From assembly GCF_004010195.1 (NCBI RefSeq), contig NC_057718.1, forward strand, positions 39,949,910 through 39,993,192: 43,283 bases of DNA, read 5' to 3'. The notes under the pieces were generated by a model, which worked only from the letters and a program-made list of their open reading frames with translations, was not told the origin of the DNA and made no database searches. The translations under genes were made by a program, and so were the position numbers. Within the stretch, counting starts at the first letter, position 1. Each line of letters starts with the position of its first letter. Shown one piece after another: positions 1-43,283 of this stretch. This DNA comes from Chiloscyllium plagiosum (Eukaryota).

Positions 1-246
1 CCTACTGTGAATCCTCTTGCAAGGATGCCTGCCTTGAAGAAGTTTTCCTCCTCTCTCTACAAGAATCTCAGGGAGTCTCTCTCTCATTGCAACTCCCAGT
101 CCCCACCCCCACCCTCCTCTAGCTTATCTCTCCATGCTTCAGGCTCTCTGCCTTTATTCCTGATGAAGGGCTTTTGCCCGAAACGTCGATTTTGCCTGTC
201 TTCGGATGCTGCCTGAATTGCTGTGCTCTTCCAGCACCACTGATCC
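1..246 (+). mobile_element. Penelope-like element terminal repeat (pLTR) fragment, family A, running off the window start
   Basis: Bases ~99-246 are a near-identical reverse complement of part of 43058-43283 and share the cctgatgaagggcttttgcccgaaacgtcgat...ccagcaccac unit with six other copies. Bases 1-98 resemble the sequence that follows the pLTR in shark Penelope elements (from recall). Confidence 0.7.
156..191 (+). ncRNA. Minimal type I hammerhead ribozyme motif (family A), core intact
   Basis: CTGATGA 160-166, extra A 167, stem II GGGC(168-171)/GCCC(176-179) with TTTT loop, GAAA 180-183, palindromic ACGT 183-186, predicted cleavage after GTC (187). Stem I is weak (attc/gatt). Confidence 0.6.
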
Positions 247-702
247 TATATCAGAGGGTTGATGAAGGTGAAACACATTGGATATAAATGAAGCAAATGG
301 GGACAGCTACATAACAAGAGAAAGAAACCTGAACACGTGAGCCTTTGTAAGATATATATTCATCTGAATAAAAAAGGTATAAATTTTTTAAAATGCAAGC
401 TGGTACATATTGTTGCTATACTATTTACATTACATAGGAAACAGTAAAGCAGCACAAACTGTTCCTCAATTCGAGTCAGAGTCATTAAGTCAGAGTCATA
501 AAATTATACAGCACGGAAACAGACCCTTCCGTCCAACTCGTCCATGCCAACCAGGTTTTCTAAACTGTACTAGCCCCATTTGCCTGCATTTGGTCCATAT
601 CCCTCTAAACCTTTCCTATCCATGAACCTGTCCAAATGTCTTTTGAATGTTGTAACTGTACTCACCTCTACCACTGCCTCTGGCAGGTTGTTCCATATTT
701 GT

Positions 703-827
703 GGTAAAAACAATGACTGCAGATGCTGGAAACCAGTTTCTGGATTAGTGGTGCTGGAAGAGCACAGCAGTTCAGGCAGCATCCAAGGAGATTCGAAATC
801 GACGTTTTGGGCAAAAGCCCTTCATCA
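703..827 (-). mobile_element. Short Penelope pLTR insertion, family A1; hammerhead GAAA mutated to AAAA
   Basis: ggtaaaaacaatgactgcagatgctgg...gggcaaaagcccttcatca matches 43058-43182. It interrupts the host CR1, with no TSD and a few host bases lost. Confidence 0.8.
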
Positions 828-925
828 CTGTGCGAGAAAGTTGTCCTTCAGGTCCCTATTACACCTTACCCCATGCCTTCTACTTTTGAGATCCCCAACC
901 CGAGAGAAAAGATCTTGGTATTCAC

Positions 926-1166
926 AGTTAAAAATCACACAACAACCAGGTTATAGTCCAACAGGTCTATTTGGAAGCACTAGCTTTCGGAGTGCTGCTC
1001 CTTCATCAGGTGGTTCATCATTTTCTGCATATTTAAATATATACAACCACCTAATGAAGGAGCAGTGCTCCGAAAGTTAGTGCTTCCAAATAAACCTGTT
1101 GGACTATAACCTGGTGTTGTGTGATTTTTAACTTTGTACACCCCAGTCCAACACCAGCATCTCCAA
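926..1166. mobile_element. Inverted pair of Penelope pLTR fragments, family B, inserted in CR1 with ~14 bp TSD
   Basis: Arm 926-1015 is the reverse complement of 1045-1133. The same sequence forms the end of the RT/GIY-YIG element at 21401. Flanks are atcttggtattcac (912-925) and atcttggctattcac (1167-1181). Confidence 0.85.
975..1015 (-). ncRNA. Minimal type I hammerhead ribozyme motif (family B), core intact
   Basis: Minus strand reads aaccac-CTGATGA-a-ggag-cagca-ctcc-GAA-AGCT-A-gtgctt. Stem I is cac/gtg (extendable aa/tt past one C.C mismatch), stem II ggag/ctcc, helix III the palindrome AGCT, with predicted cleavage after CTA. Confidence 0.7.
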
Positions 1167-4100
1167 ATCTTGGCTATTCACCACATCTATGTCTGTCATG
1201 ATTTTACAAACCTCTGTAAGATCACCCCTCAGTCTCCTGTGTCTCAGGGAGAAAGGTCCCAGCCTATCCAGCCTCTCATTGTAATTCAAACCCTCCAATC
1301 TCCTTAACATCCTTGTAAATCTTTTTCGCACCCTTTCCAGTTTAATACGTCCTTCCGATAGCAGGGTGAGCAGAATTATATCAATACCATAAATGTAGCT
1401 TCACCAATGTCTTGTACAGCCGTAACATGACATATCAACTCCTATACTCAATTCCTGCTTTCCAATTTTTAAAATGGGAAGGCAATATTTTCTAGATGTC
1501 TTGGTTCTTATTTATACTGCTCACTGTGGAATTGGGTATATGGATAGAAAGGACTCAGGGTTCATCCCAAATCTGTGGAAATGTAAACTGGGGCAAAATG
1601 ACAACTGGCTTTCACATTACTCAGAGTCAGAACAAAATGGTCAGAACCCTTATGCTAGTGGATCTCCAGTTGCTCCTGCAGGAAGGTGTGCCTAACCATT
1701 TTTCATAATACCTTTTATGGGCAACAATTTGCACATACAATCCTACTTTAAGTAAAACCATATGGATAATGTGCCAGAGGGTAGTTGCCATATATAAAAA
1801 AAGCTGGCTAAGCATGTCTCTGTATTTTCAGATACTGGTAATGTGGGAAGCACAAGTGCGGGCAGGGGAGGTGGTTATTGATGGGATCAATGCAGGGTGT
1901 GGAATAAATAAAGGCGAGACCAAACAGAATGTGAAATTATTACAATTGTTCAAAATGCACGTATGCGAATTGTTCAATATTAACTTTTGGACAGAAAACT
2001 CATTTGCTATTCACCTCTAAAGGAAGACAGACAGAAACAGAATTGAAGACACATTTCATTTCAGCATTGAAATGTAAATGACGCACTGTTGAATAAGAGG
2101 TAATAGGACACACCAGATGGCGAGTTGAGAACAAATTTGAACACAATGCTTAAAAATGCAGATGATTCTCTGAACTAATTTATAGGGAGTAGCTGTTTTG
2201 CTGAGACACTGAAAGTCCTTGGTCGTTCAGTGTTTCTCTTAAAAGCCAACTGCTGAATAAAAAATCAAAAAGCAGGGGAACTCATAACTTTAAAAATGAT
2301 TGCTGTTGAAGCGATTGACAGTCAGGAAGAGGTATTCCAATGAATGAATGGGAATAAAACTCATTCTGGTAAACTGCAGTTAGATATAAGATTTGAATTA
2401 AGGTGAAACAACTTGATGAGGATTAATAAAGTCATCTGCCATCTAAGAAGTGAAATAGGTAACTGGCCTCTTTAAAACATTAAGGTGCATCGCAGTTGTA
2501 GAAGTGTATTCTGTAAATCATCTATGTGATTTGTTTTCTTAGAAACTATGCTTTTCAACTCTGATAAAATTACTTACATTTTGAAGTAGATGTTTTCTGA
2601 ATGTATAAATATTTTAAGATTCATTTCAACTTGATGTGAGCAAGTATACCTCAGTAAGCTGAAGAGGACATAAATTCAATTAAAAACATTGGTCATCTTG
2701 AATGATATACTTAGTTTTTTGTCTCTTATTTTAAACTATTGTAGAATTCTTTGTCTGCAAAATTATTGTTGGTGAGATGAGGAATACTTCACACACTTGT
2801 ATGGAGTTCCTTTGGCTGTCATTTAAATGCAGGCATGACCCCATTTTGTATAAACGGGGTAACATCAGTTTTAAAATACCAAATAAAGGAATGAGAAATG
2901 AATGTGTTCAACACAACTCTGTTAACATTACCGATGGGTTGTCCTCACAAGCATCAACAACATGCTGGATTCTTCCTGTTGTCTTGGTTGGATTGGGGGT
3001 GGGTCAGAAAGGCTATAAAATGCCACAGGAGGACAGGAAGTGAAATGCTCAATACTTTTCTTCTGCCAAAGTATTTCACTGATGGAGAGGAAGTTCCCTG
3101 CTTTCTCCATCCCCAATGCTAACAGGGTCACTGAAGTGTTGGATTAAGGTTCTCCTCCAACCTTTGCTGGTATTTCATCAGTCACAGGTGACCCTTATGC
3201 CAGGTGGCAAGAAAGGCTAGTAAACCGGGCAGCATACCTTTAGCTCAGGACTGCAACTCTCTCCATCAGAGGCACTGTAGCCTAAAGAGGGACCCCCACA
3301 TATCAATGTCTATCCCATCGAAATCATGGTCTTGCCCTCTCCAACCCCTCTGCCCTTTCCTTGGGCCCTGCCTGACAGGTCTGATGACTACTGACCCTAC
3401 TTCATTGTGAAAGTGGTGTTCATTGCTGCGTCGTCTGAGTTGGGTTCAGTCGACACTGCTCCTAGTGACACTGCTAGGACTGAAGAGCTGCCAGCCCTCA
3501 ACTGTATGAAATACCCCTCCCATTCACCAAAATCATCACATATTAAACCCAATGAAACCAGGACACTCTCCTGCCAATGGATTTGAAGGTGACAGGGTCA
3601 CAAAATCCATCTGCAGCCTACTCACGTGTCTGAAGCATTACCAGAGGGTACAAACACTCACCACAACCTCTTGGGATTATTGATGGAAACTTAAGGGCCT
3701 CATTCCACCTCTGCAGGTAACGGAGACAGGAACACCAGGCTATGCACGAAGCCTGGCAGCTTTAGTTGGGCAGGTTGGTGTTGGGCAAAGATATTGGGAC
3801 CTGCTTTGAAGACACCTTGGTCCCATTGGAGCCGTGACCTCCTCCCCATTGCCAGAAATGACACCCCTCACCCACCCTGACACCCTTAACACTTAACTGG
3901 TACCTTCCCACCTCACACTTTATCCACCTGATAACCCATCCACCTGGCATCCTACTTAGCTGGCACCCTACTCACTTGGCATGGTGATACCCTGACCTCA
4001 GTTACCTCACACACTTAGCCTTTCACAGGAGCTATTAAAGAGGCTTTCTGTGTTTCTAGGCAATTAAGTCACATGGCCTACATTGACCCAAGTATTTTGC

Positions 4101-5809
4101 ACTACGAGGGCACAGTGGATTGAAAATATGCTCGACATTTCCATTCAGGCTGAGAGTGGAACGCCCTGCCAGACATATGGGGCCCTTTCTTAAAATAGAA
4201 AAGTAGGAGCCGAGTGTCAATCTGTTTATGATTGCCACTCCTTGGAAAAACCAATCGAATATTTTAACTCACATTCGAGGGAGTCAACTGATGGCCATCT
4301 GTCTATGGAGCCTGCAAGATTTAGTGAAAATCTTTTGGTAGCAAGGTACAACAATCCAATTAATTTATGAAGATTCCTTCCCATGCTGTTTGGTATAACA
4401 CTAGTAGATAATTGAATTTGCCTCAGCAAAGGAGAGTAAGGATAATTGTAGAGTCATAGAATCATGGAGATATACAGCATGGAAACCCGTCCATGCCGAC
4501 GAGATATTCCAACCCAATCTAGTCCCTCCTGCCAGCACCTGACCCATACCCCTCCAAACCCTTCCTATTTATATTCCCATCCAAATGCCTTTTAAATGTT
4601 GCAGTTGTACCAGCCTCAACCACATCCTCTGGCAGCTTATTCCATGCTCTGTGTGAAAAAGTTGCACCTTAAGTCTCTCTTATATCTTTCCCCTCTCACC
4701 CTAAACCTATGCCCTCTAGTTCTGGATGTCCCAACCCCAAGGAAAAGACTTTGTCTATTTATCCTATCCATGCCCCTCATGATTTTGTAAACCTCTATAA
4801 GGTCATCCCCCTCAACCTCCAATGCTCTAGGGATAACAGCCCCAGCCTGTTCAGCCTCTCCCTATAGCTCAAATCCTCCAACCCTGGCAGCATCCTTGTA
4901 AATCTTTTCTGAACCATTTCAAGTTTCACAACATCTTTCTGATAGGAAGGAGACCAGAATTGCATGCAATATTCCAACAGTGGCCTAACCAATGTCCTGT
5001 ACAGCCACAACATGACCTTACAACTCCTGTACTCAGTACTCTGACCAATAAAAGAAAGCATACCAAACACCTTCTTCACTATCCTAGCTACCTGCAACTC
5101 CACTTTCAAGGATCTATGAACCTGCACTCCAAGGTCTCTTTGTTCAGCAACACTCCCTAGGACTTGACCATCAAGTGTATAAGTCCTGTTAAGAGTTGCT
5201 TTCCCAAAATACAGCACCTTGCATTTATCTGAATTAAATTCCATCTGCCACTTCTCAGCCCATTGGCCCATCTGATCAAGATTCTGTTGTAATCTGAGGT
5301 AACCCTCTTCGCTGTCCACTACACCTCCAATTTTTGTGTCATCTGCAAACTGACTAACTGTACCTCTTATGCTTGCATCCAAATCATTTATGTAAATGAC
5401 AAAAAATAGTGGACCCAGAACCGATCCTTGTGGCACTCCACTGGTCACAGGCCTCCAGTCTGAAAACAACCCTCCACCACCACCCTCAGTCTTCTACCTT
5501 TGAGCCAGTTCTGTATCCAAATGGCTAGTTCTCCCTGTATTCCATGAGATCTAACCTTGCTAATCAGTCTCCCATGGGGAACCTTGTTGAACGCTTTACT
5601 GAAGTCCAAATAGATCACATCTACTGCTCTGCCCTCATCAAATCTCTTTGTTACTTCTTCAAAAAACTCAATCAAGTTTGTGAGACATAATTTCCCAACG
5701 TACAAAGCCATGTTGACTATCCCTAATCAGTTCTTGCCTTTCCAAATACATGTACATCCTGTCCCTCAGGATTCCCTCCAACAACTTGCCCACCACCGAA
5801 ATTAGGCTC

Positions 5810-5891
5810 ACCGGTCTATAGTTCCCTGGCTTGTCCTTACCACCCTTTTTACCGGTCTATAGTTCCCTGGCTTGTCCTTACCACCCTTTTT
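5810..5891. repeat. Perfect 41-bp tandem duplication inside CR1 ORF2
   Basis: accggtctatagttccctggcttgtccttaccacccttttt occurs at 5810-5850 and 5851-5891. It is single-copy in the sister element near 35083-35123. Confidence 0.95.
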
Positions 5892-6420
5892 AAACAGTGG
5901 TACCACGTTAGGCAACCTCCAGTCTTCCGGCACCTCACCTGTGACTATCGATGATGCAAATATCTCACAAGAGGCCCAGCACTCACTTCTCTAGATTCCC
6001 ACAGAGTTCTTGGGTACACCTGATCAAGTACTGGGGATTTATCCACCTGTATGTGTTTCAAGACATCCAGCACTTCCTCCTCTGTAATCTGGACATTTTG
6101 CAAGATGTCGCCATCTATTTCCCCACAGCCTATATCCTCCATATCCTTTTCCACAGTAAACACTGATGCAAAATACTTGTTTAGTATCTCCCCCATTTTC
6201 AGCGCTCCACACAAAGGCCACCTTGCTGATCTTTGAGGGGCCCTATTCTCTCCCGAGATACCCTTTTATCCTTAATGTATTTGTAAAAACTCTTGGATTC
6301 TCCTTAATTCTATTTGCCAAAGCTATCTCATGTCCCATTTTTTCCCTCCTAAATATACTCCTACTTCCTTTATACTGTTCGAAGGATTCCCTCAATCTAT
6401 CCTGTTTATACCTTACATAT

Positions 6421-6699
6421 TTTGATTTGATTCCTACAGTGTGGAAACAGGCCCTTTGGCCCAAACCGACACTCTGAAGAGTAGCCCACCCAGACCCATT
6501 TCCCTCTGACTAATTGACTTAACACTATGGCCAATTCACCTGACCTGCGCATCTTTGGACTGTGGGAGGAAACCAGAGTACCCACGCAGACAAAGGGAGA
6601 ATGTGCAAACTCCACACAGACAGTCACCGAGGTTGGAATTGAACCGGGGACCCTGGTGCTATGAGGCAGCAGTGCTAACCATTGAGCCACTGTGCCGCC
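6421..6699 (-). mobile_element. HE1/V-SINE-type tRNA-derived SINE inserted in CR1 ORF2
   Basis: Minus strand ggcggcacagtggctcaatggttagc (box A)...ggttcaattcc (box B), followed by the V-SINE-like core and a CR1-like 3' tail ending in aatca repeats. Similar to 32864-33178. Confidence 0.9.
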
Positions 6700-7699
6700 A
6701 ATGCTGCCTTCTTTTTCTAAACCAAATCCTCAATTTCTTTAGTCATCCAGCATTCCCTATACCTACCAGCCTTTCCTTTCACCCGAACAGGAATATACAT
6801 TCTCTGGATTTTTGTATCTCATTTCTGAAGGCTTCCCATTTTCCAGCCGTCCCTTTGCCTGCGAACATCTCTCCCCAATCAGCTTTTGAACGTTCTTGTC
6901 TAATACTGTCAAAATTAGCCTTCTCCAATTTAGGACTTCAACTTTTAGATCTGGTCTATCCTTTTCCATCACTATTTTAAATCTAATGGAATTATGGTCA
7001 CTGGCCTCAAAGTGCTCCCCCACTGACAACTCAGTCACCTGCTCTGCCTTATTTCCCAAGAGTAGGTCAAGTTTCTCTAGTAGGTACATCCACATACTGA
7101 ATCAGAAAATTGTCTTGTATACACTTAACAAATTCCTCTCCATCTAAACCCTTAACACTATGGCAGTCCCAGTCGATGTTTAAAATCCCCTACCATAACC
7201 ACCCTATTATTCTTACAGATAGCTGAGATCTCCTTACAAGTTTGTTTCTTAGTTTCCCTCTGACCATTAAGGGGTCTATAATACAATCCCAATAAGGCTA
7301 TCGTCCCTTTCGTATTTCTCAGTTCCACCCAAATATCTTTCCTGGATGTATTTCCAGGAATATCCTCCCTCAGTACAGCTGTAGTGCTATCCCTTATCAA
7401 AAATGCCACTCCCCCTCCTCTCTTGGCCCCCATTCTATCCTTCCTGCAGCATTTGTATTCTGGAACATTAAGCTGCCAGTCCTATCCATTCCTAAGCCAT
7501 GTTTCTGTAATTGTTCTGATATCCCAGTCCCATGTTCCTAACCATGCCCTGAGCTCATCTGCCTTCCCTTTAGGCCCCTTGTATTGAAATAAATGCAGTT
7601 TAATTTATTAGTCCTACCTTGTCCCTGCCTGCCCTGAATGTTTGACTCACTTCTGTTCTCAACTGTACCAGTCTCAGATTGATCTCTTTCCTCACTATC

Positions 7700-10789: not shown

Positions 10790-11430
10790 ACCACAATATG
10801 AGTTTCCGTCTCCATCACCTCTCTATCCCCAAAACTACATTCTTCTACTGTCACACCATTGCCTGGTTCTACCCCGTATCTGCTGCTGAAATGACTTACC
10901 TGTGGACTCAACTATTCCTATGCTTTCCTAGTCAGTCTCATTCTTTTCCCTCCATGAAATGAAATTTGTCCAAACCTCCACATCTTAATCAACATGAATG
11001 CCCTATTTACCCAGCACTGACTCACATGGACACTCTATCCACCAGAGTCTCAAACATCACATTTTCATCTTGTTGTCAACTACAAGACCATAACCTCGGG
11101 AAAAGTTTTCCTAAATCAATCATTCTTGCTCTCCAACACTCCCTTGCTTTCTCTGCAGCCCATTTAGGAGAAAGTGAGGACTGCAGATGCTGGGGATCAG
11201 AGTCGAGAGTGTGGTGCTGGAAAAGCACAGCAGGTCAGGCAGCATCCGAGGAGCAGGAGAATCGACGTTTCGGACATAACCCATTCATCAGCCCATTTAG
11301 GATACTATTTCTTTTAATAACCCTCCATAAACCCTTCTTTGGCATGATGCAAACTTTTACTGGTATTATTCTCCTGTGCAACACCTGGAAGTCTTTATAG
11401 AATGTATTAAAATGCATGTTGTTGTTGTCA
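10790..11430 (+). mobile_element. Highly decayed L2-type LINE 3' fragment, interrupted by a pLTR insertion
   Basis: Degenerate similarity to L2 ORF2 C-terminal DNA (tctgctgctgaaa, actattcctatgct) and an L2-like tail ctcctgtg...aaatgcatgttgttgttg. Recognised by eye. Confidence 0.5.
11170..11288 (-). mobile_element. Short Penelope pLTR insertion, family A2, with 14-bp TSD
   Basis: gaaagtgaggactgcagatgctgg...atcgacgtttcgg...ttcatcag, flanked by cagcccatttagga at 11156-11169 and 11289-11302. The hammerhead core is present but stem II is degraded. Confidence 0.85.
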
Positions 11431-11834: not shown

Positions 11835-12980
11835 GTGAATATGGGGTCAAGAGGTCCTGGCAAAACTCAAATTCAAAAGGCATCAGAGGGAAACACTCTT
11901 TATAGGCCCCTATTAGCACAGAGGAAGATGGATATGGTAGTTAAGATCAGCTATCTTAGTTCCAAGATATCACTGCAGGAGTTCCTCAGGTTGGGTCATA
12001 GTCCGTCATTTTCAGTTGCTTCATCAATGACTTCCCTGCCAAAAAAAGGCAGAAGTCAGGATATTAATGATTGCAGTGTTCAGTACTAACCATAACCCCT
12101 CAGATATTTAAGCCGTCTGTGTTCATTTCCAGCTTGACCATGACAACATTAGGACTAGTGTTGTTAAGTGATGTTTGCTGTCATAAGTACCAGCAATGAC
12201 CATTTCCATTAATAGAGCATCTAACCATTCAACAATATTATAATTACTAAATCCTCTACCATCAACATCCTGGGTATTACCATTGTTCACAAATGCAAAT
12301 AGACCAGCCACATAAACTCTATGGATACAAAAAAAGGATAGAGACTGGGAAATCTAAATTGAGTAAATCCCTTCATTCCCCAAAGTCTGTCCATCATCTG
12401 AAAGGCACAAATGAGGAGTGTGATAGAATACTGCCCGCTTGCCTGGATACATACAGGAGCTAGGGCTTGAAAAGCTTGCGGTTTCAAATAAACCTGTTGG
12501 ACTATAACCCAGTTTCGTGTGATTTTTGACTTTGTCAACATTCAAGAAATTCAATAGAATTCAAGGCAGGGCAGCTTGCTTGGTTGACAGCATCGGTCAC
12601 TTTAAGTATTCCCTGTCTTCACAGCAATATGTATAAGATTGACTGCAATAACTCACAAAAGCACTTTCAAAAGCAGATTTCAAATCCTCGCCCTAGAAAG
12701 ATGAGGGCAGCAGACACATGGGAAGACCACCACTTGGAACTGTCTGTCAAGTCACTAACCATCTGGACTTTGAATTCTACTGTCATTTGTAAACTGTCAT
12801 TGGGTCAAGATCTTGGAACTCTCTCCCTAACAGCTGCCTGGATGTACCTACACCACATGAATGACAGACATTCAAAAAGGCAGCTCACTAACACCTTTGC
12901 AAAAGAAATCAGTACAGGGTAATGTAAATAAATGCCGTACTTGCCTAAGATTTTTACATGTTTTGATAGACATAAAGAAA
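11835..12980 (+). mobile_element. Decayed CR1-group (Crack/L2-like) LINE RT-to-3' fragment, same family as 9400-10520
   Basis: AGVPQ (11975) and CFINDF (12017). It shares gcaatgaccat, atcaacatcctggg, ccccaaagtctgtccatcatct and aaggcagctc with the 9860-10500 segment. Confidence 0.7.
12455..12536 (+). mobile_element. Short Penelope pLTR fragment, family B variant, degraded
   Basis: aaataaacctgttggactataac...gtgtgatttttgactttgt matches 1088-1137 and interrupts the host LINE. Confidence 0.75.
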
Positions 12981-13077: not shown

Positions 13078-15477
13078 GGTTTTTGCATCAGTATTTACTG
13101 TGGAGAAGGATATAGAAGCTGGACAACTTGGGGAAATAATGAGTGATATCTTGGAAAGTATCCATATTGCAGAAGAAGAAGTGGTCACTGTCTTACAAAA
13201 CCTAAAGGTGGATAAATCCCCGACACCTGATCATGTGTATCCCAGAATTTGTTGGAAGCTGGAGAGGAAATTGCTGGGCCCCTTGCTGAGATATTTGTAT
13301 CATCAATAGCTACAGGTGAGGTGCTGGAAGCCTGGAGGTTGGCTAATGTGTTGCCAATATTTAAGAAAGGTTGTAAGAAAAACTAAGGAACTATAGACTG
13401 GAAAGCCTGATGTCGGTGGTGGGTAAATTGTTGGAGGGGATTCCAAGGGATAGGATTTACATGCATTTGAAAAGGAAGGGCTGATTAAGCAAAGTCAACA
13501 TATCTTTGTGCATGGGAAATCATATCTCACTAACTTGACTGAATTGTTTGAAGAAGTGACAAAGAAGATTGTTAAAGGCACAGTGGTAGACACTGTCTAT
13601 GTGGACTTCAGTAACGTATTTGTCAAGATTCCACAGAGTAGACTGATTAGCAGGTTAGATCATATGGAATTCGGGGGAGCTAGTCAATTGAATACAAAAT
13701 TGGCTTGAAGGTGGGAGACAGAAAGTGACAGCGCACAGATGTTTTTTGGTCTGGAAGCTTGTGCTGCAAGAATCAGTGCTCAGACTGTACCTTTTCATCA
13801 TTGATATAAATGATTTGGATGTGAATAGGAGAAATGGTTAGTAAGTTTGCAGATGACACCAAAATTGATGGTATATTGGACAGTGAAGATGGTTATCTCA
13901 GAGTACAATGGGATATAGGTCAGATGGGCCAATGGGCCGAGGAATGGCAGGTGGAGTTTAATTTGGATAAATGTGAGGCATTGCATTTTGGTGAGGCAAA
14001 TCAGGACAGGACTTCTACACTTAATGATAGGGCTCTGAGGATGTGTTGCTAAACAAAGGGACCTAAGGGTGCAGGTACGTGGTTCCCTGAACGTGGAGTC
14101 GTGGGTGGCTGTGGTGAAGAAGACGTTTGGTACACTTGCCTTTATTGGCGAGTGCATTGAGAATGGAAGTAGGGATGTCATGTTGCAGCTGTACAGGACA
14201 TGGGTTAGACCACTTTTAGAATACTGCACACAAGTTTGGTCTCCCTGTCATAGGAAAGATAGAAAAGAATAGAAAGCAACTTATTGTCCCGTGTATTTTT
14301 ACAAAAAAAGTGAAACGTTTTATACATTGTCATACCATTGTGCCTAAATTAATGACAGAAGTCGTAAATAAGGAGAAAAAAATGTAAAAGTTTGTTATAA
14401 TTCAATTAACATCTCCTGGGTTTAGGTTAAGCTGGAAAACTGGGCTGAAAGTGCCACACAGGGCTAGGGTGAGACAGGACCTGCAGGCTGGGACTCAACC
14501 TCCATGCTTGGTCATTGGAAAAGCTGCCTCTGAAGTAAAGCAGAGACCTTCATGCCAAGATGAGACCTCCATGCCAGAATGAGGCCTTCACCAGGGCTGC
14601 TCCGTTGGAATGCCTGGAAGCTGCTGAGGACGACCTCCACGACGGATGAGACCTCCGTGCCAGGACAAGAATGCCACTCCAGGTGGACAGCTTTCCCTCC
14701 TGGACAAGGCCACCACACTGGGAGACCGCTGCACCAGGAGACCGTCCCACCAGGCACCAGGCTTATACCACCATTCTGGGGCATTGGAAGCCACCTCATC
14801 ACTGGGCCTGGGTTGGGAGAAGACGTTTTCCATGAAAGTCATTAAAAGGTAACATAATAAATAGAAACATTAAAATAATGCATAGAAAGAAGAAAAAAGT
14901 AAAGCAGATGGAATAGATGAGCTCCTGGGCTGAAGAGTCCACACGTTGCGATGCTACTCCGCCACCACCTTGATTAAAAAAAAGTTGTAAAACTTGAATG
15001 AGTTCAGAAAAGATTTACAAACCTGTTGCTGGGATTGGAGGGGTTAGAGCTATAGGGAAAAGCTAAATAGGTTGAGACTTTCTTCTCTGAGGTGTTGGAG
15101 CCTGAGGGGTGACCTTATAAAGGTTTATAAATTCCTGAGGAGCATGGATAGAGAAAATAGACAAGGTATTTTCCCCAGGGTAGGGGAATCCAAAACTAGA
15201 CAGCATAGGTTTAGGGTGAGAGAGGAAATATTTAAAAGGGACCTAAGGGGCAACTTTTTCATGCAGAGGATGATGCGTGTATGGAATGAGCTGCCAGAGG
15301 AAGTGGTGGAGGCCGGTATAAGTACAACATTTAAAAGGCATTTGGATGGGTATATGAATAGGAAGGGATAATGACCAAATGCTGACAAATGTGACTTGAT
15401 CAGCTTAGGATAACTGGTTGGCATGGACAAAGTGGACTGATGGTTTGTTTTCATGCTGTATATCTCTACGACTCTTT
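13078..15477 (+). mobile_element. 5'-truncated CR1/HER1-type LINE split by a ~720-bp insertion
   Basis: Motifs KVDKSPTPDHVYPR, VDTVYVDFS, SKFADDTKI, VRPLLEYC and VWNELPEEVVEAG. The host sequence aggaaagat|gttgtaaaacttga rejoins across 14261-14983. Confidence 0.9.
14261..14983 (-). mobile_element. Unclassified non-autonomous element with internal degenerate ~19-bp repeats and a tacacgggacaataa 3' tail
   Basis: It cleanly interrupts the CR1. Internal units read gagacc(t/c)(t/c)catgcca..at around 14543-14585 and 14648. The tail motif is shared with 26355-26417 and 33375-33432. Confidence 0.6.
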
Positions 15478-16387
15478 GTGACAGGCACCTGCTGGCATTT
15501 TAATCTGGAGATTGTGTTAGTAAAAGAGAAAGTACAACTTTCCCAGTGTTAGCTAAAAAAAAGTTTAAAAAAACTTGGAAATTAAGGCTTTGTTAAAGAA
15601 TGTTACCTGTTAAAAATGTAAATATGTGCCTTCTCCTGATCATCCATATCTCAGCGAAAAGGACACTGTAAATAAGATATGATGACATTGACATTGCTAG
15701 TCGGAGATGGTGAATGATGACTGTGAGTGAAAGGCCATTAGGAATCCTAAGCAAAACAAAAAGCTCAGCTGGCTGAGAAGAGAGAAAACAGAGTCCAGTG
15801 AACCGTGCACCTTCTCAGCCCCACTGTCACACTTTGCAGCAGGTTTGGCAGAGCCTGCCACACTGGAATGGGGCTCCTGAACCATCCCAGAATGTACAAC
15901 CATGGCACAAAAACCATCGTCTTTTCAAATGGAACATTGCCACAGATGTTGCTGCTGTATTAATTGCAAGTCAGCCTGAGCCTGTGTGTGTTTTAATCAA
16001 TTCATACATTTTTTTCTTTATCTTCTGCCTGTGGCACTCGATTTAAATCAGCTGTTTGCTTTGAATGTTTTTGACAGTGGATGTGATTTATCAGATCAAG
16101 TTCATTAGCATGAGTCTATCAGGCCGGTGGAATAAGTGTTCCGTGATGGAAAGCCACTTAGCAGACACCCTTATTTAGAGTAAAACAATGGCTTATTATA
16201 GCTCTCCTGCTCTGATATACCAGTTAGGAAATTATAAGTCAGTTCCATTGGGGTAGCAGTTAGAATGTGGAGTAAATACAGCAGAAGTTGCAGAGGAAAT
16301 TGCAAGTCAGAAATGTCAATTTTTTATTGAAAGGAACAGAGTGGGCATCATTAAAGTATAATGTTGGGACTCGGAGGACAAGGATGA

Positions 16388-16510: not shown

Positions 16511-16514
16511 TCAA

Positions 16515-21118: not shown

Positions 21119-21550
21119 AAGCTGACTTTTAATGTTTTGACCCACTCACAAATGGGAGGTTGGCAACACATTGAGAAAATTGGAGGTTTGATCAGTGATT
21201 TGTCAAGGGCTTTTTAAGTCAGCTAAAGGAACAGCACCCACTTCCTGTTGTCTCAACCTTGTGGAATTGTGTTCAAATAATGTATAAAATTGGTGAGTGG
21301 TGAAAATAGCCTCTTTATTCAACAAAAGCAGTACCACAAGTTTGAGGCAACAATAGAATCCTGAAATACAGTTCTTACAATGGCCTCTTTATACACAGTT
21401 AACAATCACACAACACCAGGTTATAGTGCAACAGGTTTATTTGGAAGCACTAGCTTCATCAGGTGGTTGTGAAGCAGAATGATAAGTCACAGAATTTATA
21501 GCAACAGGATTGCAGTGTCATGGAATGCAATATTAACCAAAGTTAGCTTA

Positions 21551-24897: not shown

Positions 24898-24943
24898 AAA
24901 ACCTGTTGGACTATAACCTAGTGTTATGTGATTTTTAACTTTG
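24898..24943 (+). mobile_element. Very short Penelope pLTR fragment, family B
   Basis: aaacctgttggactataacctagtgttatgtgatttttaactttg matches 1092-1136. Confidence 0.8.
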
Positions 24944-25038
24944 CTGTTGACATTAAACTTGGGAAATATTATTAAATGCAAGTGACATGGTGATAAATCC
25001 CAAGAAAACATAAGATAGTCTGATAGAATGGGAAGGCA

Positions 25039-25160
25039 AAAGTGAGGACTGCAGATGCTGGAAATCAGAGTCTAGATTAGAGTGGTGCTGGAAAAGCACA
25101 GCTGTTAGGCAGCATGCAAGGAGCAGGAAAATCGACGTTTCGGGCAAAAGCCCTTCATCA
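25039..25160 (-). mobile_element. Short Penelope pLTR insertion, family A2, with 8-bp TSD
   Basis: aaagtgaggactgcagatgctgg...gggcaaaagcccttcatca, flanked by ggaaggca at 25031-25038 and 25161-25168. Confidence 0.85.
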
Positions 25161-25164
25161 GGAA
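25130..25164 (-). ncRNA. Minimal hammerhead ribozyme motif (family A), core intact
   Basis: Minus strand reads ttc-CTGATGA-a-gggc-tttt-gccc-GAA-ACGT-C-gatt, an identical core to 160-190. Confidence 0.6.
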
Positions 25165-30142: not shown

Positions 30143-30239
30143 GGTAAAAACAATGACTGCAGATGCTGGAAACCAGATTCTGGATCAATGGTGCTGGAAG
30201 AGCACAGCAATTCAGGCAGCATCGAGGAGCTTCAGCAAA
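30143..30239 (-). mobile_element. Short Penelope pLTR insertion, family A1, with perfect 13-bp TSD
   Basis: ggtaaaaacaatgactgc...cagcaaa, flanked by atcagttatctta at 30130-30142 and 30240-30252. Confidence 0.88.
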
Positions 30240-30931
30240 ATCAGTTATCTTAAAACAGTGACATCTTGTCTAGATTGCACCACACGAGGAAACATCTTTT
30301 CTACATCTAATTTGTCAAGCCCTTTAGCGTCAATTAGATCACCTCTCATTCTTCTAAACTCCAGAGAGTATAGGGCAAAACTGGTCAAACTTTCTTCATA
30401 AGACAAATCCCTCATCTCTGGTATCAATTTAGTGAATCTCCTTTGTCGTGCCTCCAATAAAACTATATCCCTCCTCAAGTATTTTTACAAAATTGCACGC
30501 AATTCTCCAGATGCAGTTTCACTAATGCCTTGAACAATTGTGGCAACACTTTCTTATTTTTACACTCTTTTCCTTCAGCAATAAATGCCTCATTCCATTT
30601 GCCTTCCTTGTTACCTGCTGTGCTTCCATACTAGTTTTCTGTGATTCATGCATGAGAACATCCAGATCCCTCTACACCAAAGCACTCTGAACTTTCTCTC
30701 CATTTCGATAATAAATTGCCTTTCAGTTCCTCCAGTCAAAATGGACAACCTCACATTTATTCATGTTAAACAATATCTGCCTAATTTTCATCCACCCACC
30801 TAATGTATCCATATCCAAATGTAAACTTCTCATTTTTCAATTCATGTGGTACCTAGCTACGTACACCTTGCTAACCAGAAAAAGACCCATTTAACTTGAC
30901 TCTCTGATTTCTGTTGGTCAGCCAATCCTTT

Positions 30932-33432: not shown

Positions 33433-33610
33433 CTATATGCATTTGAATATTTTAAAAAGGCTTTGAATGAACTTTCATGAATAGGAGCTTTTCAAGTTTT
33501 TAAGTCTATATAATTACATTTTTAGGTATATAAATCTTCTATTAATCTTCTCATGCATCCTGAGGTCAGCTCACAGAGGATACTGGAGGGATTTGGCATG
33601 GTTCAGCGTT

Positions 33611-36070
33611 AGAGTCATAGAGTCATAGAATAGAGTACAGCATGGAAATGGACCCTTCGGTCCAACTCGTCCATGCTGATCAGATATCCCAACCCAATCG
33701 AGTCCCAACTGCCAGCACCTGGCCCATATTCCTTCAAACCTTTCCTATTCATATACCCATCCAGAAATGTTACAATTGTACTAGCCTCCACCACTTCCTC
33801 TGGCAGCTCATTCCATACATGTACCACCGTCTGCGTGATAAAGTTGCCCCTTAGGTCTCTTTTCTATCTTTCCCCTCTCACACTAAACTTATGCTCTCTA
33901 GTTCTGGACTCCCCCACCCCAACGAAGAGACTTTGTCTATTTATCCTATCCATACCCTTCATGATTTTATAAACCTCTATAAGGTCACTCCTGACCCTCT
34001 GATGCTCCAGGGAAAACAGCCCGATCCTATTAAGCCTCTCCATATAACTCAAATCCTCCAATTCTGGCAACATCCTTGAAAATCTTTTTTGAACCCTTTC
34101 AAGTTTCATAACATCCTTCCGATAGGAAGGAGACTAGAATTGCACACAATATTGCACACAGTGGCCTAACCAATGTCCTGTACAGCTGCAACATGACCTC
34201 CCAACTCCTGTACTCTGTACTCTGACCAATGAAGAAAAGCATACCAAACACCTTCTTTACTATCTTATCTACCTGCACTCCAAGGTCTCTTTGTTCAGCA
34301 ACACTATCTAGGATCTTACCATGAAATGTTTAAGTCCTGCTAAGATTTGCTTTCCCAAAATGCAGCACCTCACATTTATATAAATTAAACTTCATCTGCC
34401 ACTCCTCAACCCATTGGCCCATCTGATCAAGATCCCATTGTAATCTGAGGTAACCTTCTTTGCTGTCCACTACACCTCCAATTTTGGTGTCATCTGCACA
34501 CTTACAAACTACACCTCTTATGCTCACATCCAAATCATTTATATAAATGACGAAAAGTAACGGACTAAGCACCGATCCTTGTTGCACTCCACTGGTCACA
34601 GGTCTCCAGTCTGAAAAATTACCCTCCAACACCCTCTCTCTGTCTTCTACCTTTGAGCCAGTTCTGTATCCAAATGGCTAGTTCTCCCTGTATTCCATGA
34701 AATCTAACCTTCCTAACCAGTCTCCCAAGGGGAACCTTGTTGAATGCCTTACTGAAGTCCATATAAATTGGGCTTTTGACCGAAACAATGATTTTCCTGC
34801 TCCTCGGATGCTGCCTGACCTGCAGTGCTTTTCCAGCACCACTCTAATCTAGACTCTGGTTTCCAGCATCTGCAGATGTCACTTTTGCCTCCATGTAAAT
34901 TACATCTACCACTCTGCCCTCATCAATCCTTTTTGTTCTCTCTTCAAAAAACTCAAGAGATATGATTTCCCATGCACAAAGCCATGTTGACTACCCCTAA
35001 TCAGTCCTTGCCTTTCCAAATACATGTACATCCTGTTCCTCAGAATTTCCTCCAACAACTTGCCCACCACAGACGTCAGGCTCACTGGTCTATAGTTCCC
35101 TGGCTTGTCTTTACCACCTTTCTTAAATACTGGCACCACATTAGCCAACTTCCAGTCTTCCAGCACCTCATCTGTGACTATCAATGATACAAATATCTCA
35201 GCAAAGGGCCCAGTAATCACTTCCCTAGCTTCCCACAGATTTCTAGGATACACCTGATCAGGTCCTGGGGATTTATCCACCTTTACCCGTTTCAAGGCAT
35301 CCAGCACTTCCTCCTCTGTAATCTGGACATTTTTCAAGATGTCACCATCTATTCCCCTACATTCTATATCTTCCATGTTCTTTTCCACAGTAAATACTGA
35401 TGCAAAATACTCTTTTAGTATCTGCCTTATCTCCTGTGGCTCCACACAAAGGCTGCCTTGCTGATCTTTGAGGGGCCCTATTCTCTCCCTAGTTATCCTT
35501 TTAACCTTAATGTATTTGTAGAAATCCTTTGGATTCTCCTTAACTCTATTTGCCAAAGCTATCTCATGTCCCCTTTTTGCCCTCTTGATTTCTCTCTTTA
35601 GTATACTCCTACTGCCTTTATACTCTTCCAAGGATTCATTCAATCTGTCTTGTCTATACCTGACATATGCTTCCTTCTTTTTCTCAACCAAACCGTCTAT
35701 TTCTTTAGTCATCCAGCATTCCCTACACCTACCACCTTTCCTTTCACCCTAACAGGAATATACTGACTCTGGTCTCTCGTTATCTAATTTCTGAAGGCTT
35801 CCATTTTCCAGCCATCCCTTTACCTGTGAACATCTGCCCCCAATCAGCTTTTGAAAGTACTTGCCTAATGCCATCAAAATTAGCCTTCCTCCAATTTAGA
35901 ACTTCAACTTTTAGATCTGGTCTATCCTTTTCCATCACTACTTAAAAACTAATAGAATTATGGTTGCGGGCCCCAAAGTCCTCCCCCACTGACATCTCAG
36001 TCATCTGCCCTGCCTTATTTCCCAAGAGTGGATCAAGTTTTGTACCTTCTCTAGCAGTTACATCCACATA
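33611..36070 (-). mobile_element. 5'-truncated CR1/HER1-type LINE, same subfamily as 4451-9233
   Basis: 268-aa ORF with KSPGPD and PGNYRPVSLTSVVGKLLE, plus SGVQQGSVLSPLLFVIYINDL, CADDTK and an (agagtcat)n tail. Colinear with 4451-7095. Confidence 0.93.
34770..34889 (+). mobile_element. Short Penelope pLTR insertion, family A2, with 12-bp TSD (1 mismatch)
   Basis: gggcttttgaccgaaac...gcatctgcag...cacttttgcc, flanked by tccatataaatt (34758-34769) and tccatgtaaatt (34890-34901). Confidence 0.85.
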
Positions 36071-36504: not shown

Positions 36505-36933
36505 GACTGGAGCCTAGAAGGTTGAAGGGTTTATAAAATCATGAGGTGCTTGGATAAAGTGAATAACAGGGGTCTTTTTTCTAGTGTGGGGAGATCAAAA
36601 TGGGGGGGGGGCATATTTTAATGGTGAAAAGAGAAAGTTTAAAAAAGGACATGGGAGGCAATTTGTTTTACATAGAGACAAGTTTGTGTGTGAAATGAAC
36701 TGCCCGAGGAAGTTTGGATGTAGGTACAGTTTCAACATGTAAAATATATTGGATATAAGTAAAGGTATAAGTATATTTATATATAAGTATATAGATATAA
36801 GTACATGAATAGGTAAGGTTTGGGCCAAACGCAGGCACATGAGAGTTGTTTAGATTGGGAACATGGTCAGTATGGATTAGTTGGCCTGAAGGGTCTGTTT
36901 CATGCTGCATAACTCTATTACTCTATGATTCTA
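36505..36933 (+). mobile_element. Decayed CR1 3' fragment
   Basis: ggtttataaaatcatgagg, aatgaactgcccgaggaagt, gaagggtctgtttcatgctg and a ctctatgattcta tail. Confidence 0.85.
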
Positions 36934-39177: not shown

Positions 39178-39425
39178 GGGTTGGTTAATTTGGATGGCTG
39201 GTTTTGTGATGCAGCATGACATTCAGTTCAATTCCCACACTAGTTGAGGTTCCCTGAAGGATTCTCCTCAACCTACTCCCTCGCCTGAGGTGTGATGACC
39301 CTCAGGTTAAACCACCCCCTGATGCCTCTGTCTCTCTTTCTCTCTCTCTCTATCTCTCTCTCTCTATCTATCTAACAAGAGAGCAGCCCAAGGTCGTCTG
39401 GAACTATGGCAAATTTGCTTAACTT
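39178..39425 (+). mobile_element. Decayed tRNA-derived SINE of a further family, with internal (TC)n/(TCTA)n expansion
   Basis: Box-B-like gttcaattccc near 39226, hairpin cctgagg...cctcagg, and microsatellite 39326-39373. Confidence 0.5.
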
Positions 39426-39969
39426 TTACTGAAATATAATACTGGCTTTCTTCATTGATGTGTGGGGAGGTGGCTGGTAAACAAGGTGTCAGTAATCATA
39501 TTGCACTTACAATCTCCAGCTGTATTTGCAGAACAAAACTTGTGCTGCATCCATAAGGTTCACTATGTAGAAAGTCCATGGACAGGCATTCCTTAGCCCT
39601 CCATGTCGAATCCTCCATGTCCTATTGTATGGAAGACTGTGCTACACTGTCATTTGTGTGTGGCATGAATGCTGACTGCTTGCATTACTAAGAACCCCAG
39701 TTGTTTCAGATTTTACCCACATTGGTCACAGCTCCAATGACCCTATGGATCCAGCCACATCTGTGGTCATCATTATTGTGGTCATGGCACAACAGAGGCC
39801 CAGAGAGATGGAGGAGAAACAAATGCACTAGCAAGCCCAGCATCAGCAGTAATGTTCCGTGCCTGATGAACAGCCTCTACCTAAAGAAATTTCTGCAGAA
39901 GGTGCCGTCAGGATGTGAAGAAGGTAGAGGTGGCCCAGAATGTATCATTCTCAATGTCACCTCCTTTGG

Positions 39970-40818
39970 ATGAGCAAGGTGCATTGCTGCCAGATACTGA
40001 GGATGTGCCAGGACACTGACACAAAGCTGTGCCATCTGCTTGAGAAGGACTTATGAACCGAACCAGTGGGTGGACCTTCTATCCTGGTGGCCATCAAGGT
40101 GACATCTGAATGAAATTTTTATGCAACTGCTTGCTTTCAAGGATCCACTGGGGACCTACAATCCTCGATGCTTCAAGGCGAATTACTAATGTTATTTGTG
40201 TCAGATCACACTGTTCCACCTTATTTCTTATGACAAGGTCATAAGAAAATGTTCATGTGCAGTGAATGTACAGGTCATCTGAGATCAATGGTACCACATC
40301 TTAGAGGTCTGTGGCATGTACCAGAAAGCTGCCATTTGCCTAGATTCTTGATAGCTTTCAAATTCTTGCACAGTTTCAAGGGCTGAATGCTTTTCAGGAA
40401 TGGCCACTAGAAATTAAGTGCTATCCTCTGCAACTATGGCTGATGACTCCATTACACAACCCCTTGTGTGGCCCTGAGTAGATTCATAACAATCCAATCT
40501 TCCATCAGCTTCATCATGAGTCAGAGGATAGACCACCTGAAAATGAAGTTCTAATATCTGGGTCAGCCTGAGGGGGGTGCTTGCAGTACATTCTAGATAG
40601 AACATGAAACATAATCCACGAAAGCTGTGCCCTACAGAACTGGAGCAGGGAAAGAGAGCATGTGATGGGTACAGGAGAGCCTGGAGAGTGGCAGCTATCT
40701 GCTGAGGATGAACATGAGGACGTTGAACAGCAGGAGCATCATCTTCTTCAAGCCAGACTGGTGCAGCACTGAATGCAACAAGCCAAACTGCACCTAATTG
40801 TAAACTGCTTTGACTAGC
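39970..40818 (+). pseudogene. Decayed PIF/Harbinger (HARBI1-like) DDE transposase
   Basis: Manual translation gives LRMCQDTDTKLCHLLEKDL, VAIKVTSE*NFYATACFQGSTGDL, YPLQLWLMTP (40422), LKMKF*YL (40537), CALQNW (40626) and an acidic tail, colinear with Harbinger transposase motifs. Confidence 0.75.
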
Positions 40819-41111
40819 TTTGATTTGGGTGAGGTAATCGGCCTGTGAGATAGTTACATAATTGAGTCAGAATGGCACCAAGAATCTTTGAGATAAGGAA
40901 AAGCTTATCTGGTGACTGCTTTCAGTTTGGTTGAGATTCAGTTTGCTGTGACTGACCGAAGCAATGCATCCAGAACCATCCAGAGCCAGCAAATAAAAAA
41001 AAACCATCTTTCTCCATTCTCTTTTACTGAGTGAAAGGATAAAAAAAAGGCAATTTGAAAGCCAGAATGTTCATGCAAGAAGAGACCTAGGTTCACCTGA
41101 TCAACTATCAT

Positions 41112-41275
41112 GGCGGATTGGCTGTGCTAAATTGCCCATAATGTCCAGGGGTGGGAAATGCAGAGTTACAGGGATAGGGTAGAGGGGTGGGTCTGGGGAG
41201 ATGCTCTTTGGAGGGTCGGTGTGGACTCAATGGGCCAAATGGCCTGCATCCACACTATAGGAAATCATACAATTC
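41112..41275 (+). mobile_element. HE1/V-SINE 3' half, decayed
   Basis: tgctaaattgcccataatgt...gggtcggtgtggactcaatgggccaaatggcctg matches 31088-31345. Confidence 0.8.
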
Positions 41276-43057
41276 ATACAAATCAAATAATGAACATCTC
41301 CCTTCAGGCAACATTGCTGAAATCAAAAAGCTATAAAAATTAATTCTCCACCTTGTGATCTGGACTTTTGATCAACAGAAATTTATTTTCCTTCTCTATA
41401 TTTTTCAATTTACAATATTTGTGTCAAACCATCTGTCTTCTGTGTAACATATTTGTGCAGCGTGAGTGTGTAGTTGGTATTTTAAGGAGGTACCCTTTAA
41501 GTCATATAGTTGTAAATTATTGTTCTTTCTCTCTCGCTCCCTCTCTCTCCCATTTGTTAAAGAATAAGTGCGATTACAATACATCAAGTTATTTTTGTGT
41601 TAATGACGAAACCTGGTGTGAATTGTTTTTATTCTGTCAGGTAATTTGATCATTTTGGTGGTGTCTTTACACTTTTGGTATGGTTTGGGGAATAGTGGGT
41701 CTTGGTCATCACTGCCTTTCTCCCAGTTAAGCCATAACACTGTGGCCCAGATCCCAGATGATCCAGGCAGCATTGGGTACTTCTGCTGCTAATGAGTGCT
41801 GGATATTGTGAGTGTGATGTTATAGGGGCATCATACACATATATGATGAAATGAGCTGCAGAGAACTTTGTGAGATAATCCGCAAGACGAAACGCTCCAA
41901 AATTGATACTTGGCCAACTTTTTGGTGAAATTCAGTCCATATATTCTTTTATCTTTCTCTATAGTGTGTGTATGTGTGTCCCATTATGTTTTCCTCAGAT
42001 ATAACAGTGCATACATTTACTCTTTCTTTGACTCAAACAAAGTTTGTTGACTTGCTCCTTGGTGCTCACAATAAAAATTGTTAATTACATTTTAAACGGG
42101 GAGAGGAACAACCTGGAGCAAAAAAGAAGTAAACATTTGTTATGACAAACTAAGGTGGTTAAATAGTGGATGGTCAGGTTATCCCATTCTCACTTTCTCA
42201 CATCATGGTGAATTGCCCCACCGTCGTTTCACTGTTTGATAATTGCAATTCTTTTAATTGTAAAATAAAGGTATAAATTAATTTACTAAAATAGAAACCA
42301 TTATTATTGTACAGGTCTTTCTGTATAGACCCATCAATTCAATTGACTTTTATACTTTCATATCTTCATTTCTTATTTAATTTTTGTTTTCAGTGGATCT
42401 TTTGGATGCTGCTCCGTCAAACCTATTTTGGGTACCATTAAGTTGGTGCTGTTTAACAAGTTGGAATGAAATCTCCACAACAATTCGTATTTAATTATAT
42501 ATAAAGGTGTATCATTTTCAACATTGGCCCAGGATGTGAGCAAAACTGATAACTCACAATGATACAGTGGGACCTAAATCTTTTCAGCCAATGCAGAGTA
42601 GATCAATAATCAATACAATTTTTGAACAGTGTAGCCAAAGAGCAAAATACAAATCAGAGGAAATGTGCACTCTGATCAGTCCACATCTTGCATATAATAT
42701 TGAATGTTTTCAGTAAGGAATAATGGAAATCATCAATTTATTTGGAAGCAGCAATGAAGCACACAATGCTGATTTTCTTCTGTCTTAAATCTGAGTTATG
42801 AGAATCACTAAGAGACACTTGATATTTTAAGTCTACGAAGGAGATTTTGTAGAATTATGTAAAATGGTATGGAAAAGGTCAATCCACGACAATACTTGAA
42901 AGTAAACTAGAGCAGTACAGCCAAAGAGCACTACAAATAAAGATCAACAGGCTTTTGTTATGTATAATTGTCAAGCTTTATGGCAGAAGGGTGAGAAAAA
43001 AACAGCATAGGCACCTGTCAGCATGATCTAATAGAATAGGCCTTTCAGAGTGAATGA

Positions 43058-43283
43058 GGTAAAAACAATGACTGCAGATGCTGGAAACCAGATTCTGGAT
43101 TAGTGGTGCTGGAAGAGCACAGCAGTTCAGGCAGCTTCCAAGGAGCTTCGAAATCGACGTTTTGGGCAAAAACCCTTCATCAGGAATAAAGGCAGTGAGT
43201 CTGGAGCGTGGAGAGATAAGCTAGAGGAGGGTGGGGGTGGGGAGAAAGTAGCATAGAGTACAATGGGTGAGTGGGGGAGGGGA
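43058..43283 (-). mobile_element. Penelope pLTR copy, family A1, running off the window end
   Basis: It matches 703-827 and the reverse complement of 99-246. The hammerhead GAAA is mutated to AAAA. Confidence 0.85.

Follow-up and report, generated by a model that had tools for sequence, protein, structure and literature searches.

The short hammerhead-carrying repeats dispersed in the genome of Chiloscyllium plagiosum are probably abortive 'strong-stop' insertions of Penelope-like elements, products of reverse transcription that would have run off a capped RNA start lying before the hammerhead. This reading is built on a window of 43,283 nt (contig NC_057718.1, positions 39,949,910 to 39,993,192) and on a genome sample of 1.4 Mb made up of evenly spaced stretches. 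In the mechanism that we propose, transcription of the element would begin from an initiator-like A within the pLTR, and the RNA would retain the portion of the hammerhead that precedes the cleavage site. The enzyme would make nicks in the two target strands, about 14 nt from each other, and prime one cDNA per internal start site, with reverse transcription beginning about 95 or 130 nt from the RNA 5' end. Each cDNA would reach the cap and then add a C; the product would become a single stub when joined to the target and a head-to-head pair when joined to the other cDNA. Longer copies would come from RNA extending further upstream (tandem read-through) or from a template jump. The hammerhead would mark the neighbourhood of the 5' end without cutting there. 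Penelope-like elements are the sister group of telomerase reverse transcriptases, and the copies described here address the origin of their pLTRs, tails and inversions as well as the role of their hammerhead. In retroviruses, minus-strand strong-stop DNA is a short first cDNA that ends at the RNA 5' end; the Penelope product would differ in being primed on target DNA rather than by a tRNA.

Positions are given on a scale mapped on natural long copies, in which C3 of the hammerhead core is 0 and cleavage falls at +27/28; arms at risk are those that reach the hammerhead. There are two fixed 3' ends, about +90 (short tail) and +126 (long tail), which lie 36 nt apart. The 5' ends pile up within a few nucleotides: in the 1.4-Mb sample, 97 of the 151 family-A arms at risk (5.4% per nt) and 22 of 42 family-B arms (4.4% per nt) stop at -9..+2. 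Outside this peak the family-A bins have stop rates of 0.2-0.7% per nt, except for 1.4% per nt at +3..+10; the peak rate is about ten times that elsewhere. The peak is retained after strict de-duplication (80 of 131 family-A and 22 of 41 family-B arms), a treatment that is too severe in that junction types which recur are collapsed into one; the counts made without it (97 of 151) still include about four true duplicates. It centres on an initiator-like A, at -4 in family A and -8 in family B, at the 5' edge of stem I and about 32 nt before the cleavage site, with individual ends ragged over -5..+2. The peak follows the CA initiator motif, which is 4 nt further out in family B, and not a constant distance from the core. 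The cleavage site has no peak in the same sample, with 12 of 193 arms in +24..+33 (0.62% per nt) and six family-A and no family-B arms in +26..+30. TSDs support the ends, being found for 26 of 125 single arms versus 8 of 375 flank-swapped controls. An alignment artefact caused by divergent upstream sequence was considered and dismissed, since both the TSDs and 40 fetched junctions speak against it. The smooth 5' distribution expected of random truncation was not obtained, as the first-pass annotation of the window had anticipated.

A second line of evidence is the nucleotide that precedes the start. Matches in which the A is not preceded by the element's own C were tallied by eye among the first 100 listed, which belong to a single chromosome and to young subfamilies with intact CpGs. 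The first 100 of 9,899 genome matches to family A2b gave G57/A29/T14 (26% G expected, p 4e-11), and the first 100 of 3,293 matches to family B gave G67/T23/A10 (26% expected, p 8e-18). Control sites gave G36/A64 at the cleavage site (1,068 matches) and G8/A12/T80 at an internal site (585 matches), in both cases among the matches listed. None of 37 long copies has a G at -5, and none of 40 fetched G-start copies runs on into upstream element sequence. The evenly spaced sample shows a weak G signal (8 of 32 short family-A copies). Among 20 fetched family-A G-start copies judged by eye, only about eight carry a clearly untemplated G, because in the other 12 the G also belongs to the TSD or the partner arm. 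The extra G points to a copied mRNA cap. In the available text on full-length L1 insertions, an extra G marks cap copying (PMC11702581), and the accessible parts of two Penelope papers place an internal promoter in the pLTR (PMC2377424, PMC8557442). Together with a peak about 32 nt upstream of cleavage and none at it, the extra G favours a capped start over the 'ribozyme-delimited' unit that had been suggested.

All ten copies listed earlier are present in the window (Table 1). The nearly fixed 3' end reported for them is borne out, with six family-A copies finishing at the long tail and copy 1-246 at +87, and four TSDs given as 8-14 bp were seen in the sequence as 14, 8, 13 and 12 bp, the 12-bp one having a single mismatch. 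The five internal family-A copies do begin at or near the core, at +1, 0, -3, +28 and +8, as had been described; the genome-wide peak is sharper and lies at the 5' edge of stem I. Intervals 926-1015 and 1043-1166, previously counted as two units, proved to be one head-to-head insertion within a 14-15 bp TSD.

Table 1. Hammerhead-related copies in the window (strand relative to the window; 5' and 3' ends on the hammerhead scale)
Position	Strand	Feature	Remarks
1..99	+	Element body normally after the long tail (5' UTR/ORF start)	Matches L235, L236 and L290; 1-246 is an internally deleted family-A partial tandem whose upstream part falls in an assembly gap
100..246	+	Family-A 3' UTR and pLTR, -57/-60 to short tail (+87)	
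156..191	+	Predicted minimal type-I hammerhead (descriptor match)	Core from 160, predicted cleavage after 187; initiator-like A at 156 is the putative transcript start
703..827	-	Family-A1 short copy, +1 to long tail	Lies in a LINE fragment and has a mutated core; no TSD reaching 8 bp visible at copy ends
912..1181	.	One family-B head-to-head insertion	TSD 912-925 / 1167-1181; short-tail arm 926-1015 (-), 27-nt spacer, long-tail arm 1043-1170 (+)
11166..11291	-	Family-A2 short copy, 0 to long tail	14-bp TSD overlaps both ends
12455..12536	+	Old family-B short-tail copy	Begins near stem II
21390..21500	-	Longer family-B copy, to about -73	Stem II deleted; absent from earlier list
24899..24943	+	Family-B copy truncated at +43 (past core), short tail	Absent from earlier list
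25033..25164	-	Family-A short copy, -3 to long tail	8-bp TSD; intact minimal hammerhead
30143..30242	-	Family-A1 short copy, +28 (cleavage site) to long tail	13-bp TSD, sharing a 3-nt overlap with the 5' start
34770..34890	+	Family-A short copy, +8 (stem II) to long tail	Within LINE; 12-bp TSD with one mismatch
43058..43283	-	Long family-A1 copy, extending from the long tail to -100 or further	Cut by assembly gap

The presence of minimal hammerheads was confirmed, with 87 descriptor matches in the 1.4-Mb sample versus none in a shuffled copy. Stem II differs in sequence between families A and B while its pairing is kept. An Rfam scan found no family matching these hammerheads or the short unit, the one match being a chance hit to mir-968 on an inverted pair.

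Identical ends are found on the short copies and on family-A long copies bearing an RT/GIY-YIG ORF, in line with the earlier suggestion of mobilisation by Penelope RT/GIY-YIG. The 441-aa frame of one long copy (L177) matches GIY-YIG (PF01541, E 8.8e-5) above the cut-off and RVT_1 (E 0.0044) below it, with a YIDD motif present; another (L235) is a partial tandem with a gap in its ORF that carries the same ends. In the translations, a C-X4-C-X2-C linker precedes GIY-YIG and matches the Neptune-clade CX2-5CxxC trait; linkers of this type are common to Neptune and Nematis according to the available part of PMC8557442. The predicted order of RT then C-terminal GIY-YIG in one ORF, together with the partial tandem, 77 inverted pairs, optional tail and minimal hammerhead in the pLTR, qualifies family A as an EN+ Penelope-like element, Neptune-like in its translated features. 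Family B has the hammerhead, both tails and inverted pairs, and its longest sampled copies are about 640 nt. No complete gap-free full-length copy was recovered among the sampled copies. As far as the accessible portions of PMC8557442 and PMC3846280 go, elements of the Neptune/Nematis type share with those described here the C-terminal GIY-YIG with CX4CxxC linker and the minimal-hammerhead pLTR, as well as heavy 5' truncation, partial tandems, an inverted 5' pLTR, a 30-40 nt tail at one end and TSDs. The main product here differs from what those portions describe, being a stub of 95-130 nt that has an extra G and whose 5' ends form a sharp peak.

With 101 short copies to 36 long ones, the question arises whether the short copies form a lineage of their own. 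They could be a self-propagating, SINE-like unit, transcribed from an internal Pol II promoter and recopied in trans by the Penelope enzyme. Since the unit contains the proposed capped start as well as both RT start sites, the cap G would fit this model too, and short copies are mutual nearest neighbours beyond chance, with a concordance of 0.72 versus 0.61 that none of 300 shuffles reached; a pure by-product does not need such clustering, which counts against abortive stubs. Nevertheless, long copies occur in all five subfamily groups, each of which mixes both kinds, and the nearest-long distance (0.062) is close to the nearest-short (0.056). For one core haplotype, the element's upstream C is present in 25,745 matches and absent from 9,899, and replacement of that C by G breaks the initiator. 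Short copies also stop at the start site and do not include the body that follows the tail, whereas the anole element requires downstream RNA, to +172 of its ORF (PMC11167929). The whole short unit aligns to the pLTR of long copies, with no head derived from Pol III RNA. We therefore regard the SINE-like model as unlikely; of the independent unit proposed earlier, the concordance gives weak support at most, and the mixed groups and missing body speak against it.

The arrangement of the two 3' ends bears on how the abortive insertions would be primed. About half of the arms sit in head-to-head pairs within one TSD, and exactly one long tail is present in 74 of 77 such pairs; a TSD of 8 or more is found in 58 of the 77, mostly of 11-17 nt. 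Many junctions use 1-3 nt of microhomology, and the stem II complement is repeatedly found joined to -3. Arm-to-arm similarity in 21 pairs (same subfamily group in 19) is compatible with one RNA or two. A splice acceptor at the long tail was also considered and dropped, since only a T is conserved after the A2 end and A1 runs on into the body. Self-priming, or fold-back, has been proposed for rotifer Penelope elements in the available text of PMC3846280, and could generate such pairs, perhaps with an antisense template. Short palindromes or microhomologies are frequent at the junctions, and in 20 of 64 untied pairs the long-tail arm reaches further 5'. In the other 44, however, the short-tail arm extends further 5' (p 0.004); it contains sequence missing from the long arm and so cannot have been copied from that arm by fold-back, and conversely the long arm has a tail missing from the short one. 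Both arms can carry the extra G, as they do in one pair (L335), a finding that speaks for sense, capped templates. Fold-back is accordingly a doubtful explanation, and priming of one cDNA at each site is preferred.

Two known systems resemble this arrangement. The purified enzyme of the green anole Poseidon element PAc initiates reverse transcription at two internal sites and extends both strands, independently of hammerhead cleavage (PMC11167929); as is proposed here, the two sites are separated by the tail and the substrate is uncleaved RNA. The differences are that no dependence of the start site on the strand was seen in vitro, versus exactly one long tail in 74 of 77 pairs here, and that the PAc ORF starts inside the hammerhead core and not after the tail (PMC11167929). 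In L1 twin priming, as described in the accessible part of PMC11702581, a second primer on the other target strand yields an inversion in a discrete TSD, and cap run-off adds a G. The L1 arms are adjacent, nearly non-overlapping parts of the RNA, whereas both arms here are the same 5' segment from two fixed sites.

A structural or repair hot spot at stem I, acting through RT stalling, exonuclease trimming or microhomology without any transcript start, could also concentrate 5' ends. The family-A peak coincides with the 5' arm and edge of stem I, a point against abortive stubs, and the raggedness of the ends and the microhomology junctions, including the recurrent joins to -3, would suit it. 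An RT entering the stem from its 3' side would, however, be expected to stall near +28..+31; the family-B peak is 5 nt beyond stem I, and other junctions show no G excess, which makes the hot spot improbable. Definition of the 5' end by hammerhead cleavage or a circular RNA, as in the circular-RNA model of PMC4209133, is largely refuted and very improbable even though the hammerheads are intact and conserved and one window copy begins at +28: that position has no peak, the cleavage site has 1,068 purine-preceded matches versus about 8,500 at -4 (the patterns differ), the actual peak is on the uncleaved side with a cap-like G, and no head-to-tail array was seen in the window or, by eye, among 16 same-strand neighbours within 400 nt in the 1.4 Mb. 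Non-LTR retrozymes are likewise small, non-coding and pLTR-related with a type-I hammerhead, and dispersed monomers have been reported; they occur as tandem arrays with units of 150-450 bp, and processing between the ribozymes yields circular RNA (PMC7229834; bioRxiv 10.64898/2026.07.22.740005). The copies here are instead dispersed single or inverted stubs whose ends (5' -4/-8, 3' +90/+126) lie away from the cleavage site. On the abortive-stub reading, dispersed hammerhead 'monomers' in vertebrate genomes need not be retrozymes or SINEs but can be failed Penelope products.

Inverted pLTRs, tails and two start sites are already published, and the available portions of the Neptune/Nematis papers attribute the inversion and tail to self-priming or endonuclease resolution (PMC8557442, PMC3846280). 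Among the openly accessible papers searched, there was no report of a cap-G 5' peak, priming asymmetry, twin priming or strong-stop DNA for Penelope-like elements. A large natural insertion set is likely to record where the capped RNA starts, the two sites of priming and the arm that is completed first, and would supply exact, testable coordinates for the Penelope-like cycle. More tentatively, and as a possibility that we rate low, this replication may be that of an LTR element in miniature: a dimeric enzyme would prime two strong-stop cDNAs near the capped 5' end, full-length copies would arise by strand transfer to the hammerhead-cleaved RNA 3' end, and the 31 nt from start to cleavage would act as the terminal repeat (R). 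Hundreds of thousands of stubs and head-to-head pairs would then be failed transfers, and pLTRs, tails, inversions and ribozyme would be explained together.

Poly(A) single-cell reads are uninformative either way because 92% of them continue into other sequence and no start or end stands out; in these reads and contigs, the repeat and its head-to-head joints occur inside other transcripts.

The short hammerhead-carrying repeats of families A and B, which match the ends of Penelope-like elements (PLEs), form a genuine, non-random feature that belongs to a known class. They are probably abortive Penelope-like insertions terminated at the cap, and we judge half of them to be twin-primed. A 1.4-Mb sample of the same genome, taken as 140 pieces of 10 kb at even spacing and including 52 kb of N, contained 273 family-A and 72 family-B arms, an arm being one copy mapped on a scale with the hammerhead core C3 at 0; at about 200 and 53 arms per Mb, extrapolation gives several hundred thousand genome-wide. 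Exclusion of 44 family-A arms (19 for low score, 15 for N, 8 at an edge, 2 for low identity) and 8 family-B arms (7 for low score, 1 for N) left 229 and 64. Of these, rates were tabulated for the 205 A and 61 B arms whose 3' end was intact and whose 5' end lay at or before +60.

In family A, 97 of the 151 arms that reach +2 terminate in -9 to +2 (5.35% per nt); the remaining bins hold 0.2–0.7% per nt, except +3 to +10 at 1.4%. In family B, 22 of 42 arms terminate in the 5'-peak bin, and strict de-duplication leaves 80/131 and 22/41. The 5' ends thus do not follow the smooth distribution that the first-pass annotation had named as refuting its unit, but the peak lies on the uncleaved side of the hammerhead; this position and the cleavage-site bin (12/193 family-A arms, 0.62% per nt) speak against the ribozyme setting the 5' end. 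Among 111 single family-A arms, 27 begin at -4 to -2 and 33 reach past -60 with a smooth spread. TSDs of at least 8 adjoin the mapped ends of 26/125 single arms versus 8/375 swapped controls.

The A of a pyrimidine-CA motif, which we take to be initiator-like, lies at -4 in family A and -8 in family B. Whole-genome patterns rejecting the element's own C before this A gave 9,899 matches for A2b, a family-A subfamily, and 3,293 for B (25,745 A2b matches carry the C). By eye tally, G preceded the A in 57 (A2b) and 67 (B) of the first 100 matches listed for each, with 26% expected; the first 100 listed for the cleavage-site (G36/A64) and internal-site (G8/A12/T80) controls had no G excess. G preceded the family-A start position in 0/37 long copies, and 0/40 fetched G-start copies continued into upstream element sequence. 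In the evenly spaced sample, whose copies are older and mixed, the G excess was weak (8/32). In several copies, including those at L315 and L318, the TSD terminates right before the G. The G was common to the target or partner arm in 12/20 family-A G-start copies, as expected if an unpaired C on the cDNA chooses its partner. Published work describes an extra G in full-length L1 insertions as a sign of cap copying (PMC11702581) and an internal promoter in the Penelope terminal repeat, or pLTR (PMC2377424, PMC8557442). From sequence, we infer a capped transcript start at the 5' peak.

Parent-element tracing covered family A. Upstream of long copies lie a GIY-YIG domain, a CX4CxxC linker and RT motifs. 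Because RT-bearing copies close with the same tail, and because in L235, a partial tandem spanning about 3.7 kb including a gap, the tail runs on into an ORF, the short copy would correspond to a putative 5' UTR of a Neptune-like element. The partial tandems at the window start, L296 and L207 are internally deleted (tail, 100–190 nt body, jump to 3' UTR, pLTR). Their junctions all differ, and they may be true non-autonomous derivatives or products of template jumps. Additional related families (L031, L039, L076, L115 and others) likewise form head-to-head pairs; one has a CTTTGA variant replacing the CTGAnGA core.

The 3' ends of sampled arms form two clusters 36 nt apart (about +85 to +97, short tail; +122 to +128, long tail). 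This is the already known optional tail, which has been equated with two internal RT start sites (PMC11167929). A rare third 3' end occurs at L290 (minus strand, around 1150–1600), where the sense arm of a head-to-head pair within a 15-bp TSD stops about 130 nt beyond the long tail.

An opposite-strand partner lies immediately upstream of 126/273 A and 57/72 B arms. The 77 reciprocal pairs comprise 64 long + short, 10 long + other, 1 long + long and 2 short + short; a TSD of at least 8 is present in 58 of the 77. The short-tail arm extends further 5' in 44 pairs and the long in 20, with 6 ties; within family A, short arms get as far as the start-site zone in 37/49 pairs and long arms in 20/49. 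In those 44 pairs neither arm was copied from the other, and therefore two cDNAs would have been primed, one per target strand. If one RNA served both arms, the trailing long-site cDNA would more often end early. Inverted pLTRs with a tail on one end only are already described, with self-priming or endonuclease resolution proposed as their origin (PMC3846280, PMC8557442). At L317 and L012 a family-A tail is fused to family-B tail sequence, L317 being a single insertion with an A arm on one side and a B tail in inverted orientation on the other; such joins suggest two different RNAs in one event, or one family inserted into the other.

The proposal that short copies form a SINE-like unit is at most weakly supported: their nearest neighbour is short at 0.72 versus 0.61 ± 0.05 by chance (0/300 shuffles), but all five subfamily groups mix short and long copies, and the closest long and closest short copies lie at similar distances. 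Retrozymes form tandem arrays that undergo processing between ribozymes (PMC7229834; 10.64898/2026.07.22.740005), whereas no such array occurs in the window or among close same-strand neighbours of the 1.4-Mb sample. The phenomenon is known in outline, thousands of minimal hammerheads, single and opposite-strand, having been reported as truncated PLEs (PMC4209133); a search of open-access literature found no report of the cap-G peak or the arm asymmetry for PLEs. By descriptor, the minimal hammerhead in these copies is real (87 matches in 1.4 Mb versus 0 in shuffled sequence).

All copies listed in the first-pass annotation were recovered at their window coordinates, as were the TSDs on four of the five internal family-A copies; two family-B copies taken for separate units are instead a single insertion. 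Mapped on natural long copies (C3 = 0, cleavage predicted after +27), the 5' ends of the five internal family-A copies lie at +1, 0, -3, +28 and +8.

Features located in the window
Feature	Coordinates	Arrangement	Basis
Family-B head-to-head insertion	926-1015 + 1043-1166	opposite-oriented arms, one TSD	
Family-A partial tandem with internal deletion	1-246		sequence mapping
Family-A copy meeting assembly gap	43058-43283		sequence mapping
A further long interspersed repeat, several diverged copies	492-1450, 4449-7096, 13081-15478, 33610-36070		
Penelope insertions	703, 926-1166, 34770	nested in that diverged repeat	

Long copies are under-counted because assembly gaps interrupt many of them, at similar places. 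Such gaps also bound the window at both sides (L233, L234), with a Penelope copy at each.
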